NCBI GenBank assembly: GCA_021613535.1
Contig: CP075497.1
Location: 8,157,488-8,221,487, forward strand
Direction of reading: 5' to 3'
Length of the DNA: 64,000 nt
DNA from: Adineta vaga
Taxonomy: Eukaryota > Animalia > Rotifera
A program made the position numbers and the translations under genes. The stretch's first letter is position 1. Every line of letters starts with the position of its first letter. Shown piece after piece: positions 7,719-51,436 of this stretch. Below the pieces are notes generated by a model. It had not been told where the DNA came from, made no database searches, and worked only from the letters and a program-made list of their open reading frames with translations.

Positions 7719-9189
7719 CTAGTAGACGAGTTGTTGTGCCAATGGATTAAACATTGGTTGTTGACTCGGATAACTATGGGTTGGTGTACCAAGAGTATTA
7801 CCAGAACCTACCATTGGCATGCCACTTGGAATCATTCTACCTTGTTGCATCATTGGACGATATCCATATGACATTCCTTGATGTGCTGGATACATATATG
7901 TTTGAGGAACATAATTTGTTGGTAATGGTGGAATTGATTGAGGAGCGGTTAATTGTTGCATTGATGATTGCATTTGCACAGGTCGATACATAACTTGTTG
8001 TTGAGCAGGTTGTTGTTGCATCATTCCCATCGATTGTACAGGTTGTTGCTGCATCATTCCCATCGATTGTACAGGTTGTTGCTGCATCATTCCCATCGAT
8101 TGTACAGGTTGTTGCTGCATCATTCCCATCGATTGAACGGGCTGTTGTTGCATCATTCCCATCGATTGTACAGGTTGTTGCTGCATCATTCCCATTGATT
8201 GAACGGGTTGTTGTTGCATGACACCCATGGCTTGCATTTGTTGTGGTTGTAAAACACCCATGGATTGCATCTGTTGCGACGATGGCATCATCATCATTGT
8301 TGTTTGTGGCATAGGTGCTCCCATTGGTACTGGTTGAGCATATTCAAAACTTGATCCTGATGAAAAACTTGGATCATTATCCATATTACCATGATATGCA
8401 ATGGGTCGTCCGATTGAACCTGCAATAGAATGATTTCGATAAGGATTACCACTTGCCATTACACCATTTGAAAATGAAGGTAATCCATTGCATTGATTAC
8501 TAAATGGTGAACCAGGTTGACTATAACCACTTCGAAGTGGTCGATCGACTTTAATAACTCTAATAAAAATAAATATCTACATAGTTGTTTTATTAAAACA
8601 AAAGAAAAAACCTTGTTCGAACAATTGGTGGTGGTGCTTCTTCTTGCATTTCTTTTTGAATAATACGCGGTGGTGGTGTACGTGGTTGTTCAATAACACG
8701 TTCAACAATTTCCTGAGCTTGTGGTCGAATAATAACCTAATGAATATAAACGATATTCAAATGATAATGTTTCTTTTCTAGATTGAAAATTTCATACTCG
8801 TTCCATAACAGGTGCTTCTGGTGTTGGAGCACGTTCGACGACTCGTTTAATAATTGGTGGTGGAGTTGGTGCACGAACAACATCACGTGGACATCGTCTT
8901 TCTCGTGTTATCATTCGACCACGATATTCATATTCATCACCACTTTCACTATCGGATGAAAATGATCCCGGTGAATATGACCTAAGAAGAGAATGTATTT
9001 TTGTAAGAAAAACAAAAGATCCATATTCAAAAGTATCGACGTATTACCGTCGTTGATAATTAGCATACATATTCGTTGGAATACCAGTTGTATATCCGTT
9101 TAACATTGATGGATCAACACCATAACCATTTGTAGGAGGTGCTGCAGAAACGGCTGGTGCTCCATTGGGATAGACATAACGATAGGACA
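7719..9189 (-). CDS. Low-complexity Q/M/P-rich protein (gene span, at least 4 exons) with PP/PY-rich N-terminal exons and 11-aa tandem repeats
   Basis: Exon 1 on the minus strand is MSYRYVYPNGAPAVSAAPPTNGYGVDPSMLNGYTTGIPTNMYANYQRR, followed by a GTAATA donor. Middle exons encode RAPTPPPIIKRVVERAPTPEAPVMER / VIIRPQAQEIVERVIEQPRTPPPRIIQKEMQEE. The last exon (ORF 7719..8459) has (MGMMQQQPVQS)n. No family assignment was possible from sequence alone. Confidence 0.5.
7990..8215. repeat. About 6-7 near-perfect tandem copies of a 33-bp unit (caggttgttgctgcatcattcccatcgattgta) inside the CDS, encoding MGMMQQQPVQS
   Basis: Direct reading of the sequence. The units are identical except for a few with g/c substitutions (gaacgggctgttgttg). 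Confidence 0.9.
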
Positions 9190-9900
9190 TCTCTTTTTCT
9201 CTATATGCACTTAAACAAAGTAATGTGTTTGTATTAACGTGAAACGAATGTTGTTGAACAGATCAGTACTTTCATTTGTCGACCGTCTCCGTTTCGCTTC
9301 AGTTCACTGCGTACATATATACGTACAGATAACGATCATTTATGTGAAGAGAGAAAGAATGTGGTCAAAATAGAGGGAAATATCGCGAAGACGAGACGGT
9401 GACCTCCTCATCATTTTGTTTTATACTTTACATACCATCACGATACAAGGTGAACACATGATTATATTTATTCATCGATAAATCAAAAACAAGAAAGAAA
9501 GCAATATTGAACCATTTAATATCTTTCTTTCATTATCTTTTGTCTCCTACACTTTTTTGATAAGCCTTTCAAAATTGATACGTTTCATGATTGTTATAAA
9601 ATATTCATTAATATTTTGACATTATATAAAATAGAAAACAAAAAGGAGGTTGATTAGCCATTATGATAGAATATCATTATCTATCCTACGCTTTTTGTTT
9701 CTTTAATCAAAATAAAAGAAATAATTCTTTTTTAAGACATAAAATTCGAGATGACATTCCATCTGATGGTTTCACAGTTTTTTTATTCATATTATCCATT
9801 ATACAGAATATTCAAAGTTCTAGACATGTTTACAGATGTTATTTCGTATTTAACATGAAAAATAAACTGTGTATGTGATCATATGTTAGGAGTCTAGTTT

Positions 9901-10215
9901 TTATTCGAGACTTCGTTTACCCAAGCCTGATGCAAATTTAACTGATGCTAATCGTTTACCCAATCCTGACGCGAATTTTGCAGCTGCCAAACGTTTGCCA
10001 AGACCACTGGCAAATTTCGCTGATACTAATCGTTTGCCAAGTCCACTGGCGAATTTTGCTGTAGCCAAACGTTTCGCTACATCAAAGTCTTCACTACTTA
10101 CATCATCCAATTGTTCATCACTGTATAGAAATGATGTTGATTCTACAACAGTATTGAAATGAAAAAGAACTAGAATAGCAAGTACACCAGCAATAAGAAG
10201 GAATTGTGTCTGCAT
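9901..10215 (-). CDS. Neuropeptide precursor (prohormone) encoding four KR-flanked copies of X4-KFASGL-Gly, predicted amidated peptides LATAKFASGLa, LVSAKFASGLa, LAAAKFASGLa and LASVKFASGLa
   Basis: ORF 9901..10305 on the minus strand. Its internal Met starts a classic signal peptide (MQTQFLLIAGVLAILVLFHFNTVVEST), followed by an acidic spacer (DEQLDDVSSEDFDVA). The motif then runs KR-LATAKFASGLG-KR-LVSAKFASGLG-KR-LAAAKFASGLG-KR-LASVKFASGLG-KR-SLE, which is a dibasic cleavage site plus a C-terminal Gly amidation donor repeated in 42-bp DNA units. The start is chosen at the Met before the signal peptide. The upstream 30 codons of the ORF look like intergenic read-through. Confidence 0.65.
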   Translation of the reverse strand: MQTQFLLIAGVLAILVLFHFNTVVESTSFLYSDEQLDDVSSEDFDVAKRLATAKFASGLGKRLVSAKFASGLGKRLAAAKFASGLGKRLASVKFASGLGKRSLE

Positions 10216-12807
10216 AGTTGTCCAAAATAAATTATAGGATAATATAGATGTTGATAATAAACTGCTTAACAAAAACTGAAATAAAAGAAAAACAACAAGT
10301 TTCAATTACAAATCATCTCACAAACTTTATAGCATTCAATCAATCACTTAGTAAAACAAAAGTAAGATATAAATTTCGTCAATAAAAATTCACAGAAATT
10401 CTCTAGAGAGATAATATAGACATCGTCTAGTGAAGCATATTTATGTTATGAATTTTTGGGAATGTGTGTATGTCAGTAATAACGATGCATGAATAACACG
10501 TATTCAACACAAATTTCTTTTTTTTTCTAGAACTACAATATATGTCAGCTTCCGCAAAGATAAACAACTCGACATATTCGCTTTTCTTTTATTCTTCCTT
10601 TATCCTTGCTTATTCTTTTATTTCTACTCGTATTATAATGAAAAGCAACACAATAACAATAATAACTATGGGCTAGCAAGTGAATTGAATATGAACGTCT
10701 CAACAACCAACACTAATTCTAGTTTGTTTGCATTCATCCGTTCGTTTCCTTTAAGCTCTCTATGTTCATTAGAATTAATCGAAGACATTTTCAAACAAAT
10801 GTAAACATCATTAATTGTTTTCAAGGCCAGTTGATACCTCAAATAATTGTATAAATTTTTTTAATGAAAGATTTACACATAGAGAAAAGAAAATTTTCCA
10901 AACGATGAATGAAAGAATGTACTGAAGTAGTACAAAAGAATAATATAAAAATGTCGAAGGATCTCTTCATGAAAAGATTAGTATCTATACAAAATAATGA
11001 ATTTGATCAATCAAAATCTTATCATCTGATTATCTAGAGAATACAAATGATATTTAGTACATTTCGAAACTTACTATTAATTAATCTGATATGTTACTTT
11101 AGTACAAATTTACGTTAGAGATGTATAAATAGTAACGTATAACCTACCTGTTCTCTTCGAATTTAAAATACCAAAACTGAACTTCTTTTCGTGTTGAAAT
11201 TATCAGAAAGAATCGGATACAATTGTTCACACACTCTTTTCCTATATAAATAAAACTTGAAATGAACTGAGAAGAAGAAAAGGAGGAAAAAAACCGTCGA
11301 GTCTCTTATTTTTCTTTCTATTTACTCTAGTTTGACTTTACTATGCCATCATCGGTGATAGATAAAAGAATCGATGTAAAATTTTCCTCTCATCTCTTTC
11401 GATTATTCTATGTAAAATCTAATCAAAAATTAGAATATGCAATACACATGTCAAAAGAATATCTCCTCTGGCTTTTGTTCGTCTGATCTATTGCATAAAA
11501 TATTGATCGTATAGAAGCGTGCAGAAAAAAAAGGAAATTAAAGACAATAATTATATTCTTCTCCTGCTTTTTGCTGATGATTTTCTGCTTATATGTTATA
11601 TTCAATCTGAATAATACATTGGAGAGCTGAAATTTATCTATTTCAATCAAATCTCTACATCTCTTTGTTTTTCTCAAATGATGTGATATCTAATTAGCTA
11701 AATTATATTCTTCTGCATGAATAATATTTGCTGTAAAAAAAGAGAAAAATTATAATCAGACGACGATTGGTTTTTTCTCTCTTTGGAATATTTTCTTCCT
11801 GATATAGAAATAATTGATAAACAATGAAACGGGATTGAATTTTGAAGAAAAAAAAAGAACAAGTTCATAAAGTGGAAGATAGATATGATTTTGTAAAAGG
11901 GAATAACTATTACTTCAGCAAATCGGAGCAGCTGTCAACTGATAATGGTTAAGTGAATAATCGAGACTTTTTCGGTATACATCATACAATGAAGGTTTAA
12001 TTATTGACTTTACTTAGTACTTTTCAATTTTCTTGTCATCATCAACTGACTTAGATGTGAGAAACGGATGATTTCATTCGGTTCTTAGTACCCATGAAGA
12101 AATATAAACATCTAACTATAACTTGTGATGAATATTGTTCGAAATATTTGTTTGTTTTCCTATTTAGATTAACACTCGCAAAAATATTAAATAATATTTT
12201 TCTTCGTCCTTTGCTCACAAATGTAAACAGACGAACTTTCTGTTCAAAATCATTTTACTCATGGAGATATCTGATGTAATGTTGAACCTCAATCTTTACT
12301 TAGAGGATGAATAGAATAAAACTAAATAGTATTATCCAGATTGATCGAGCTTATCAATGATTACAAATCTACTCAATGTTTACTTTCGGATATCTAAGAG
12401 GTTTCATTGGAACTGTATTATTATGATAAAGACATACAGGATTTTGAAGAAAATGGACATGATCATTCAATGAATAATCAAATTGTTCTGTCGCTTAGTC
12501 AAACAATTAACTAAAATTACGTTATTTGATTTGGATTGTATATGTATTTTTTCGGATATATAATAGTTGACATTTCTATATAATCAATAAATATATTTAC
12601 AACTGATTATTAAGTTGTCAATCATTTTATGAAAGAAAAATAACCGTTAAAGAACAGCGAAAAAGAAAATCTCAACAAATTTTTCGTTTTTTTTCTACTT
12701 ATAAAATCAATTATGTCAAAAGTATTGAATTTTTCCTTTTCATTCAAAGAAAGTCAATCGACAATTGAATAAACATACGTATTTTTCTTCTTCTTCTTCT
12801 TTTCGTT

Positions 12808-13456: not shown

Positions 13457-13744
13457 CTAATGTTTGTTTTCGACTTCAGATTGACTATGTGCAGCATCAG
13501 CCATATCAGTGTCGGTTAATGCCGATCGTTTCCAAAATTTTCGTTGTGACATACGTTTCCAAAATCGTGATTTTGCTGCTCGTGCACTGAGAATATGAGC
13601 GGGATAATAATTATCAAAATCTTCCCAATCAATATTTTCAACAGCTGCATTACCATCGTTATCTGGTGACGAACTCGATGAAAGAGTAATGCCAATGAAA
13701 GCAATAAATAAAAATAAAATTGTATTGATTAATGTCGTACGCAT
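13457..13744 (-). CDS. Small secreted protein, prohormone-like (signal peptide, acidic spacer, KR-flanked short peptides ending in -RFW and -KFW)
   Basis: MRTTLINTILFLFIAFIGITLSSSSS is a signal peptide. It is followed by PDNDGNAAVENIDWEDFDNYYPAHILSARAAKSRFW-KR-MSQRKFW-KR-SALTDTDMADAAHSQSEVENKH. The dibasic KR sites bracket two short peptides that share a C-terminal (R/K)FW. There is no Gly amidation donor, so peptide identity is uncertain. Confidence 0.4.
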   Translation of the reverse strand: MRTTLINTILFLFIAFIGITLSSSSSPDNDGNAAVENIDWEDFDNYYPAHILSARAAKSRFWKRMSQRKFWKRSALTDTDMADAAHSQSEVENKH

Positions 13745-16783: not shown

Positions 16784-18263
16784 TTACCATTTGGTGCATA
16801 CATAGTTGCATAAAGACGACGCTAAATATCGAAAGAATATTTGATTTGAAAAGATAAAATTTTCTTTTACTTTTTTTGTTTCATTCTCCATTGTTTCGTA
16901 CGGATCGGAATACAAATCACAATGTAGATCATTATGATTCGGTATCAATCCACCAAGATTAACATTTGAATTGGAATTACCACCACCGGTTGCATATATA
17001 TGATGTAAATCTAAATGTCCATGGTGTAAATGATGAAGTTCACTTTGTGGTAACGGTAATGGTTGAGCTAATGAATGATGTTGTTGTTGTTGCTGCTGCT
17101 GCTGTTGCTGTAAAAGACGATGATTAGCATTCATTTGTTGTTGTTGTTGCTGTGAAGGATCTATATAAGGTAATTCGATCAGTCCGTTTTTACCTTTATT
17201 CGTTGTTACTAATGTACGTCGAACAATAGGTCGTAATTTATACAAAGGTGGTTCAGGTGTATTAGCTGAGATACATTTTGGACATAGCCATGTTTCAGGT
17301 ATATCATCACTAAATACACCTTCACTTGCAGACGTATCGGGATGAGCAGTCTATATAATAGAATTAGTTCAAAACTAGCAAAGAAGAAAGTCAAATGAAA
17401 CATACATGAAAGCATGGTAAATGATGTATTTCCATGCATCGTTCACATTCATATAGAACTTCTTCTGGTTTCAATTGTGATAATTTTCTTGAACCTTTCT
17501 TTTTTGAACATACTTGACAAGATGCAGTCGAAGGTAATATAGGTGCAATACATTGTTTCGTTAAACAACATTGTTTCATTTTTCCAACACCACCAAATTT
17601 TGGCATATCTTTACAATGTACACATTCAGAACAATCATCACGACAACATGGTTCACATTGTTTACATCTAATGGAGATAAAATACTATGAAAAAATAATA
17701 AATAAAGTAGAACAAAAATTTTACCTAACACGTTTATGTCGATCTTTTGCAGTAGATGTTTTATCGATATTTGTTTGATAATGTTGTTGTGTAGGTGTTG
17801 GAGGTGATGTTGTTGTACTATATTGATTATTTCCATTTGTATGATGATAATTAATCACATAATGCTGTTGTTGCTGCTGCTGCTGCTGTTGTTGTTGTTG
17901 TGCAGCATAATAATTTGCTAAATTCGATTGTGTTTGTTGTTGAGATGAATTTGAACTAGCTAATGGTCCGCTTAAAAGAATAGTCGCCGATGGATGTAGT
18001 GTAACAACATTTGTCGTTGTCTGTTGATGTTGTTGCATTGCTAATGTATCATATTGATGATGATGATGTGAAGAATGATGTGATGATTGTTGCTGAGCAT
18101 GTGGATGATGATGGTGATGATGATGAAGATGTTGCTGCTGTTGTTGTTGTTGATGATGGAATGACGAATGATGCTGCTGTTGCATATCGTCACTACCCGT
18201 ACTGCTCTTGCGTTTTATGCCTCGTAAAGTCTCCGTTATTGTTGTTCGCTCGTTCTGAAACAT
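16784..18263 (-). CDS. CXXC-type zinc finger followed by a PHD-like finger, embedded in long polyQ/polyH tracts (gene span, at least 4 exons)
   Basis: Minus-strand exons give a Q/H-rich N-terminus (ORF 17721..18263) ending in KDRHKRVR. The next exons read CKQCEPCCRDDCSECVHCKDMPKFGGVGKMKQCCLTKQCIAPI, the CXXC CpG-binding signature (CGxCxxC...C.DM.KFGG.G). After that comes CQVCSKKKG...LYECERCMEIHHLPC ... WLCPKC, a PHD-like C4HC3 arrangement, then a polyQ C-terminus (ORF 16784..17245). The CXXC-PHD architecture resembles FBXL19/KDM2-type readers, but no JmjC domain or F-box was seen. Confidence 0.6.
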
Positions 18264-49174: not shown

Positions 49175-51436
49175 ATGAAGATTAATCAATTTATTTCTAT
49201 TATCTTAATTTTATTTTCATTACAAAATGAAATCTTAGCTCGAAGATATTTAACATATCGCCAACGAACTACAGATTTCGAGCAGGAAATTCTTGATATT
49301 CTCAATAAACGATTTTCAACGAATTTTAATTCAATTTCGGATGTATTAAATCATAATGAACGTAAGGTTGATCCTGATGATCATGTTAATATCGAACTTT
49401 GGAATAAATTAAATGATAAAGATATAAAAAACATGCCACAAATAGATGATTATTCCGATGAAACGGTTGCTACACGTTGGCTTAAATGGTACTCAAAGAT
49501 ATCAAAACGATTCTATCAAGTAAAGCATCAGATGAATAGTTTCGATTAGTGAGTTATTTTTTCTCTTATTTAGGTCAGTGCTCTTCTTGGATGGAATCAT
49601 CGAACTAATTTAACGGATGCAAATCAAGCAGCAGTATCTGCTCAAGGTTTACGATCGGCGCCATTCCATCGTTTATCATTACCAATTGCAAAGAAATTTA
49701 ATGAATATATGAAAAATTCAACAGATGAAGATTTAAAACGTATTTTTGGTCGTTTAGCTCAAGGATCAACGAGCCATAATGATGCAGATGTCAAAACACG
49801 TTCAAAGTTACATTCAGAATTAGAAACAATTTATTCAACTGCAGAAGTATGTGAAGTCAATGATCCGAAGAAATGTTATACACTTTCACCTGTATTGGAA
49901 CGAATTATGCAAACTGAAAAAGATTATGATCGTTTACTATGGGCATGGAAAGGTTGGCATGATCAATGTGGAAATAAAATTCGTCCAGTTTATTTACCTT
50001 ATATCGATCTATTGAATAAAAATGCTAAAGAAAATGGACTCAATGATGTAGCTGTAAGTAAATGAAGCGAACATATTTTCTTATCATTATTCTTTTCTTT
50101 ATTTGTAGCAAGAATGGATTGCGGATTATGAAATGGGTAATGATACAGAATTCGAACATATGATTGATGAAAATTTAAAAGCTATGATGCCATTCTATGA
50201 ACAATTACATGCTTATGTTCGTGGGCGTTTGTGTAAAGTCTATCCGAAACGTTTTGATTGTGATGGTCCTATTCCTGCCCATTTACTCGGTAAGTTGTCG
50301 TTTGTCATATTGACATGTCCAACGGAAAATTATTCCTAGGTAATATGTGGGCTCAACAATGGCAAGATCGTCTCGATGATTTGATGCCCTATCCTGATTC
50401 ACCATTAGTAAACATTACACATATGTTACATGAAAAACATTTTACAATTGATAAAATGTATAAGACAGCTGAAGAATTTTTTACTTCAATTAATCTTTAT
50501 CCAATGACACCGAAATTTTGGGCACGTAGTTTGTTTAAAAAACCAACTGATCGTGAAGTTGTATGTCATCCATCAGCATCAAATTTTCAATATCATGATG
50601 ATTATCGAGTAAAAATTTGTACGGTTATCAATGATGATTATTTCTATACTGCTCATCATGAAATGGGTCATGTAGAATATTATATGTCCTATGCGAAACT
50701 ACCATTTGCCTATCAAGACGGTGCTAATTCGGGTTTTCACGAAGCAATTGGTGATACAATCGGCATGTTTGCAAGTGAGTTTCTTATTCTATATTAATTC
50801 TTTCATTTATTCAAAATAATTTCATTCTTTGATATTTTAGTTTCAATACCACACTTAATAGAATTAGGTTTTGTTGATAAGGATAAGGTTAATTCACATT
50901 ATGAACTTAATTCTTTAATGCGTATGGCTTTACAAAAAGTAGCTTTCTTACCTTTTGCTTATGTTATGGATAAATATCGTTTTGCATTATTTCGTAATCA
51001 AATCAATCGTGATACTGAATTGAATGCAAAATGGTGGGCATTACGTAAACAATATGGTGGATTGATGCCACCAGTACCTCGTAGTGATCCAGAAAATTTC
51101 GATCCTGGTGCGAAATATCATGTCACATCCAACACACCATACGCAAGGTATTTCATTGCACATATATTACAATTTCAATTTTATCGTGCATTGTGCCAAT
51201 TACACGGTCATGAAGGACAATTACATATGTGTGATATCTATGGAAATAAGAAAGTTGGAGAAAGATTCAAACAAATGTTAGCACTGGGCAGTTCAAAACC
51301 ATGGTCAGAAGTATTAATAAGTTTAACTGGAGAAAATAAATTAGAACCACAAGCGATGTTGGATTACTTTGAACCTTTACATAAATGGTTAAAAATGGAG
51401 AATCTTGCTCGAGGTTATCCTGTTGGTTGGATGTGA
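49175..51436 (+). CDS. Angiotensin-converting enzyme-like zinc metallopeptidase (M2 family), single catalytic domain, secreted, no C-terminal membrane anchor (gene span, about 6 exons)
   Basis: Signal peptide MKINQFISIILILFSLQNEILA. The exons align to the ACE catalytic domain: ...[140 protein letters not shown] (HEXXH plus the downstream Glu zinc ligand); ...PYARYFIAHILQFQFYRALC...MCDIYGNKKVGERF. The protein ends ...LARGYPVGWM immediately before the stop, with no hydrophobic tail. Confidence 0.85.

Follow-up and report, generated by a model that had tools for sequence, protein, structure and literature searches.

The closest described systems are the rotifer precursors named 'Allatostatin-A' in the NP-HMMer preprint, in which arthropod-trained hidden Markov models (HMMs) were run on rotifer proteomes (bioRxiv 10.1101/2024.07.20.604414). 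Among the bdelloids, one such precursor is given there for Adineta ricciae, two for Rotaria socialis and two for Didymodactylos carnosus, all with KFASGLGKR units, and a precursor of Brachionus plicatilis with KMRFYGGL-, RMRYFGAL- and KMKYFGGL-Gly-KR is listed as well (bioRxiv 10.1101/2024.07.20.604414). For the allatostatin-A (AstA) family at large, the paper on the Aplysia receptor gives the motif Y/F-X-F-G-L/I-amide, while a looser form, FXXGL/I-amide, is used there for the 19 buccalins of Aplysia with activity on apBuc/AstA-R, amidation being essential (PMC12509031). The gene discussed here lies in a stretch of 64 kb of the bdelloid Adineta vaga (hereafter the window) and codes for a small protein with the same KFASGLGKR units in four copies. 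It is probably the A. vaga AstA/buccalin-type prepro-neuropeptide gene, which we consider the best explanation overall; the family has already been proposed for the sister species in 2024, and the A. vaga copy is its unnamed orthologue.

Architecture and conservation of the KFASGL-amide precursor

The gene (Table 1) is read from the minus strand, from the ATG at 10215-10213 to the TAA at 9903-9901. The frame remains open upstream as far as a TTG at 10305 without another ATG, which places the first Met at 10215. The initial annotation had located this open reading frame (ORF) exactly, and had read it as a secreted, multi-copy precursor that is cut at dibasic sites and amidated at Gly; translation, composition and the pattern of conservation among bdelloids all agree with that reading, and the translation also returns the decapeptides as they had been written down. 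The 104-residue product is built up as MQTQFLLIAGVLAILVLFHFNTVVES / TSFLYSDEQLDDVSSEDFDVA / KR / LATAKFASGLGKR / LVSAKFASGLGKR / LAAAKFASGLGKR / LASVKFASGLGKR / SLE, followed by the stop. Its N-terminus (MQTQ) leads into a hydrophobic core of 14 residues (FLLIAGVLAILVLF, mean Kyte-Doolittle value 3.2), and the predicted cleavage site VES/T (residues 26/27) fits the (-3,-1) rule and recurs at the same place in the orthologues. At the first dibasic site, all of the 35 aligned homologues have R49 and nearly all have K48. Each unit consists of a 10-residue peptide, a Gly and a KR, i.e. 13 residues or 39 bp, and Tandem Repeats Finder returns a period of 39 over the ORF (scores 103 and 132), so that the 14 residues and 42 bp counted initially have to be corrected. 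The GC content is 0.36-0.39 across the ORF versus 0.23-0.30 in the flanks. A six-frame scan of the window found no other FxxGL-GKR gene.

A signal-like N-terminus, an acidic spacer, four KR-flanked copies and a Gly as amide donor are thus all present, as is characteristic of a secretory precursor, and it is very probable that the gene encodes a genuine processed and amidated signalling-peptide precursor. Following the established prohormone pathway, the precursor would enter the endoplasmic reticulum and lose its signal peptide after Ser26, after which prohormone convertases of the regulated secretory pathway would cleave behind each KR, a carboxypeptidase of the E/D type would remove the basic residues (Lys and Arg), and peptidylglycine alpha-amidating monooxygenase would turn the C-terminal Gly into an amide. 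The expected products are four decapeptides of the form L-x-x-x-K-F-A-S-G-L-NH2, the acidic spacer peptide and SLE. Judging by family resemblance, the decapeptides would act as neuromodulators on a class A G-protein-coupled receptor (GPCR) of the AstA-R/galanin-receptor type, and the example of AstA and buccalin suggests a possible role as inhibitory modulators of feeding or of the gut musculature.

A search of 5.8 billion proteins returned 35 matches, i.e. the A. vaga protein itself (hypothetical protein I4U23_029817, the best match, with 100% identity over 104/104 aa) and 34 other homologues, which derive from Adineta steineri, A. ricciae, Rotaria socialis, R. sordida, R. magnacalcarata, Rotaria sp., Didymodactylos carnosus and environmental contigs. 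The gene had at first been proposed as a possible undescribed flatworm neuropeptide (npp) gene; all that speaks for this is that the sequence is AT-rich and follows the general grammar of prohormones. A flatworm origin is excluded by the complete identity of the product to I4U23_029817 and of a nearby ORF to A. vaga I4U23_029819; moreover, no platyhelminth protein was found among the matches for which a source name was shown or looked up, all named homologues being bdelloid. The protein search returned one KFASGL-amide precursor for A. vaga and two paralogues each for A. steineri, R. socialis and D. carnosus; a second AstA-like paralogue of A. vaga may have been lost or may be unannotated.

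In the alignment of these homologues, which carry 3 to 5 units, every unit keeps the pattern R-L-x-x-x-K-F-A-S-G-L-G-K-R with little or no variation, while drift is seen in the signal peptide and the spacer. All four A. vaga units share KFASGLGKR despite the use of different codons (Ser AGT/TCA, Leu CTT/TTG, Gly GGA/GGT/GGC), and the differences between the units, sorted by codon position (1/2/3, minus-strand frame), number 13/10/44. The KFASGLGKR repeat pattern is far beyond chance. Such conservation also bears on the idea that the secreted multi-copy peptide serves outside the nervous system, e.g. as a host-defence or exocrine peptide released by furin-like processing. The decapeptides are indeed cationic (through Lys and the amidated C-terminus) and amphipathic. 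Their net charge is however just +2 over ten residues, the closest relatives are neuropeptide precursors, and nine residues that are invariant across deep bdelloid lineages, together with a Gly donor, are the usual mark of a receptor ligand, unlike the fast evolution of defence peptides, which makes this role very unlikely.

At the DNA level, the gene was compared with its orthologues in A. steineri, where it is modelled as a single 315-bp exon, and in a Rotaria-like genome. Between A. vaga and A. steineri, the ratio of non-synonymous to synonymous substitution rates (dN/dS) rises from 0.03 in the KFASGLGKR core and 0.06 over all units to 0.15 at the variable LXXX positions, 0.26 in the spacer and 0.40 in the signal peptide. 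The core is identical in amino acids between the two species, and the lone 'non-synonymous' step behind the value of 0.03 is a multi-nucleotide synonymous codon change, most likely a switch of Ser between AGY and TCN. Most substitutions relative to A. steineri are at the third position of minus-strand codons. A chance ORF or an antisense artefact was considered and rejected, as the plus-strand ORFs at 9945-10064 and 9995-10162 are mirror images of the gene and the substitutions follow the minus-strand codon phase.

The history of the units can be read from the same comparison. Among themselves, the A. vaga units are identical at 24-31 of 39 nt, compared to 33-37 of 39 nt with the A. steineri units in the same position, which are the closest match for each unit. 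For three of the four, the closest unit in the Rotaria-like genome is likewise the one in the same position; in that genome, divergent DNA codes for LASAKFASGL four times over. Orthologous units are therefore more alike than paralogous ones, which means that the four units predate the split between Adineta and Rotaria and have been held by purifying selection. Concerted evolution, to which the likeness of the units had initially been attributed, is ruled out by the same observation.

Relation to allatostatin-A and buccalin

The peptide family could not be named in the initial annotation and was thought to be possibly undescribed; as mentioned, orthologues with KFASGLGKR units appear as Allatostatin-A in the preprint. 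A full-text literature search for 'FASGL' gave solely results for the Fas-ligand gene symbol. For rotifers, De Oliveira et al. (2019) give precursors of the FMRFamide/RYamide type and FCAP-related ones, and the word 'buccalin' is absent from the main text of that paper; Thiel et al. (2021) contains nothing about a KFASGL-amide gene in rotifers, and rotifers are unmentioned in PMC8514136. The papers searched, PMC9400282 among them, gave no usable information on AstA/galanin/kisspeptin receptors of rotifers.

As a reverse test of the HMM-based assignment, 1.84 billion representative proteins were searched with a profile built from the 35 bdelloid sequences, which gave 142 matches at E<=1e-3. When the matches outside the bdelloid set are sorted by their commonest C-terminal tripeptide ahead of Gly-dibasic, FGL is found in 51 proteins (arthropod AstA, with as top non-bdelloid match a spider protein named 'buccalin', E=2e-18), GGM in 17 (including an AWNSGFAGGM-type precursor of the copepod Caligus), GGL in 13 (including Brachionus calyciflorus), MGF in 5, GGV in 5 and GGI in 2. 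An oyster 'buccalin-like' protein (motifs GGL/GGI) and the 'allatostatin-A' of Urechis are matched as well. The AstA HMM thus retrieves the bdelloid orthologues and the bdelloid profile retrieves proteins named AstA or buccalin, but with scores that are carried largely by the GLGKR grammar and alongside other Fxx(G)GX-amide families. Intermediates to canonical members are also present, in the form of the profile-matched Brachionus precursors of (K/R)(F/Y)(Y/F)GGL-amide peptides, which have the same length and layout, and the loose motif FXXGL/I-amide is found in 4/4 units as F-A-S-G-L-Gly. The proposed membership in AstA/buccalin is built on motif, layout, intermediates and reciprocal profile matches, not on a receptor. 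Multi-copy precursors of AWNSGF(A/S/T)GGM-Gly-KR peptides, one from Caligus rogercresseyi and many from marine metagenomes, make up a sizeable set among the matches.

The matches also bear on a possible kinship with the molluscan LASGLVamide family (e.g. MMDPLASGLV-amide), which has the string ASGL in common with the rotifer peptides: the oyster peptide contains L-A-S-G-L, and the rotifer peptides contain F-A-S-G-L and often start with L-A-S. In the molluscan family, however, the amidated end is a Val one position later, whereas the A. vaga peptides end in -FASGL-amide, and a repeated GLV-Gly-KR motif occurs in 0/142 profile matches, so that such a relationship is extremely improbable.

A number of points weigh against the AstA/buccalin assignment, or against parts of the precursor model behind it. 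The strict motif Y/F-X-F-G-L/I-amide is lacking, since position -3 (counted from the amidated end) is Ser, not Phe, in every unit and in every bdelloid homologue. The Pfam model PF05953 (Allatostatin), which has 11 positions and is built on the FGL type, has no match in the A. vaga protein, for which the Pfam scan gave no significant family at all, and it scores the R. socialis orthologue at E=0.23 and 12.6 bits (cut-off 33.5). The recurring G-L-G-K-R processing grammar inflates the E-values of the bdelloid profile, which picks up copepod-type AWNSGFAGGM-amide and nematode-like F-x-MGF-amide precursors too. The signal peptide of the KFASGL-amide precursor is a predicted one, called heuristically from hydropathy and the (-3,-1) rule. 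Finally, the internal Lys (LxxxK/FASGL) could in principle be used as a monobasic site to give FASGL-NH2; the constraint on LXXX (dN/dS 0.15, with the Leu invariant) suggests that the decapeptide is the functional unit.

Several of these points would also fit a different reading, in which the gene is a genuine amidated precursor of a family specific to rotifers or gnathiferans, its GL-amide end being convergent, without orthology to AstA/buccalin and with a different GPCR as target. The Ser at -3 replaces a Phe that is considered important for activation of the AstA/kisspeptin receptors (PMC12509031), the Allatostatin model remains below threshold, the similarity to AstA comes down to ~5 residues plus generic GKR grammar with a profile that matches other Fxx(G)(G)X-amide families, and according to an AstA review, orthology in lophotrochozoans has been lacking clear molecular evidence. 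On the other hand, the monogonont (F/Y)(Y/F)GGL-amide peptides combine the same length and layout with typical buccalin-like sequences, the reciprocal profile searches link the bdelloid precursors to those of AstA/buccalin, and an AstA-type receptor is proven to respond to Aplysia buccalins that end in FXXGL-amide and have Gly at -3 (PMC12509031). A lineage-specific family therefore seems rather unlikely to us, and on sequence grounds true orthology to AstA/buccalin is favoured, with reasonable though not high confidence.

Flanking elements and neighbouring genes

Table 1. Features of the KFASGL-amide gene and its surroundings (positions in the window)
Feature	Position	Strand	Basis or remark
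Complete prepropeptide coding sequence, 104 codons + TAA, intronless	9901..10215	-	ORF calling and translation
Signal peptide, residues 1-26 (MQTQFLLIAGVLAILVLFHFNTVVES), predicted cleavage VES/T	10138..10215	-	hydropathy and (-3,-1) rule
Acidic spacer, 21 residues, 27-47 (TSFLYSDEQLDDVSSEDFDVA)	10075..10137	-	7 D/E, 0 K/R
First dibasic KR site, residues 48-49	10069..10074	-	translation and alignment
Unit 1, LATAKFASGL-G-KR	10030..10068	-	predicted LATAKFASGL-NH2, [M+H]+ 977.578
Unit 2, LVSAKFASGL-G-KR	9991..10029	-	predicted LVSAKFASGL-NH2, [M+H]+ 991.594
Unit 3, LAAAKFASGL-G-KR	9952..9990	-	predicted LAAAKFASGL-NH2, [M+H]+ 947.567
Unit 4, LASVKFASGL-G-KR	9913..9951	-	predicted LASVKFASGL-NH2, [M+H]+ 991.594, isobaric with unit 2
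C-terminal tripeptide SLE + TAA stop	9901..9912	-	
AATAAA hexamer overlapping the stop codon, candidate poly(A) signal	9900..9905	-	read from sequence
Second AATAAA, 114 nt downstream of the stop	9782-9787	-	read from sequence
Polypyrimidine tract + CAG, ~60 nt upstream of the ATG	10276..10292	-	3-genome alignment
Conserved non-coding block, ~60 nt, ~250-300 nt upstream of the ATG	~10462..10521 (approximate)	-	3-genome alignment
RFW-KR ORF, 95 aa, 3.2 kb upstream of the KFASGL-amide gene	13457..13744	-	100% identical to A. vaga I4U23_029819

Identity to A. steineri amounts to 68% over the 400 nt upstream of the gene and 57% over the 400 nt downstream. Within the polypyrimidine-CAG element, the aligned block TTTCAG/TT is kept in A. 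vaga, A. steineri and the Rotaria-like genome, which makes it a candidate 3' splice acceptor, either for an intron in the 5' untranslated region or for spliced-leader trans-splicing. The block further upstream is mostly identical across the three bdelloid genomes (alignment columns ~40-100) and may represent a non-coding exon at the 5' end or else a regulatory element.

The order of the genes is kept with A. steineri, and comprises an RFW ORF of 93-95 aa, a 145-aa gene on the opposite strand, the KFASGL-amide gene, a Q/M-rich gene of 428 aa, a GNAT-like acetyltransferase and 14-3-3. In the window, part of the 428-aa gene that follows the A. steineri orthologue is seen as a Gln/Met-rich ORF of 246 aa (7719-8459, minus strand) with six tandem MGMMQQQPVQS repeats and a weak Pfam 'Mucin-like' match.

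In the RFW-KR ORF, a signal-like N-terminus and an acidic stretch precede the block R-A-A-K-S-R-F-W-K-R-x-P-x-R-(K/H/R)-F-W-K-R-S, which is (nearly) invariant over 21 homologues (Ala57, Pro66 and Ser74 at >=90%). Every named homologue is from Adineta and the remainder are contigs; a second A. vaga paralogue, I4U23_013369, lies on another chromosome-sized contig of 20.35 Mb, and synteny between the ORF and the KFASGL-amide gene is kept in A. steineri and in the Rotaria-like genome. The block has no Gly, and any peptides released from it would therefore not be amidated. The ORF has no Pfam match and is absent from the rotifer lists in the NP-HMMer supplement. From its layout, it could be a second, non-amidated and undescribed peptide precursor. 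A more far-reaching and doubtful proposal is that the KFASGL-amide peptides, with Ser instead of Phe or Gly at -3, are a bdelloid-derived ligand that has moved off the AstA receptor and onto another GPCR and that, separately, the RFW-KR neighbour is a second undescribed, non-amidated neuropeptide precursor, the two forming a conserved bdelloid gene pair.

Elsewhere in the window, two ORFs with long polyglutamine and polyhistidine runs (16784-18263, minus strand) resemble exons of a low-complexity nuclear protein, and a 124-aa ORF (49175-49549, plus strand) has a hydrophobic N-terminus, two dibasic sites and no meaningful Pfam match.

Comparison with known precursors

The value of the assignment is modest. 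It provides a functional name for the A. vaga 'hypothetical protein' I4U23_029817, and the model bdelloid joins the few gnathiferans for which an AstA/buccalin-type precursor is on record, in a clade that has been flagged as under-sampled for neuropeptides (Thiel et al. 2021). No new question is opened by it, with the family assignment already in the preprint. The series from bdelloid F-A-S-G-L through monogonont F/Y-Y/F-G-G-L and mollusc F-x-G-G-L to arthropod Y-x-F-G-L illustrates the tolerance of position -3, which is useful for de-orphanising receptors of the AstA/galanin/kisspeptin clade in Spiralia.

The bdelloid 'Allatostatin-A' proteins (Aric33919, Rsoc7983/Rsoc31746, Dcar12455/Dcar11442) are direct orthologues or paralogues of the A. 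vaga protein, with the same MQT(K/Q)F... signal, acidic spacer and L-x-x-x-KFASGLGKR units. A. vaga was outside that study, and in its annotation the product appears simply as a hypothetical protein; the units number 4, compared to 4-5 in the others, and the C-terminus reads ...GKRSLE before the stop, whereas one of the paralogue lineages ends directly in ...GLGK.

The monogonont precursors of Brachionus plicatilis (Bpli20339) and B. calyciflorus (CAF0847132.1) are, like that of A. vaga, multi-copy, KR-flanked and Gly-amidated, with peptides of ~10 residues. Their AstA-like peptides share the N-terminal Leu/Ile, a basic residue before the aromatic one and the C-terminal G-L-amide, but their core is (K/R)(F/Y)(Y/F)GGL instead of KFASGL, and their units are set apart by long spacers whereas those of A. 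vaga are strictly tandem. Brachionus LDKMKYFGGL-amide and oyster LDRYGFAGSL-amide align position for position with LASAKFASGL-amide, and the three have their length, Leu1, the aromatic residue at 6 and Leu10-amide in common.

Further away, the Aplysia buccalins, the buccalin-like protein of Saccostrea (XP_061170638.1) and Urechis allatostatin-A (QUP52014.1) resemble the A. vaga precursor in their FXXGL/I-amide end, their multiple copies and their ~10-11-residue peptides. Unlike the A. vaga peptides, buccalins usually show Gly-Gly ahead of the Leu as well as a conserved Asp towards the N-terminus, and the buccalin/AstA precursors of molluscs and annelids are far longer (265-505 aa, with 9-29 peptides). 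Arthropod allatostatin-A (FGLamide; PF05953) gives the best non-rotifer profile matches (E down to 2e-18) and shares with A. vaga the aromatic residue at -5, the Gly at -2, the Leu-amide at -1 and the tandem GKR processing, while its hallmark Phe at -3 is a Ser in A. vaga.

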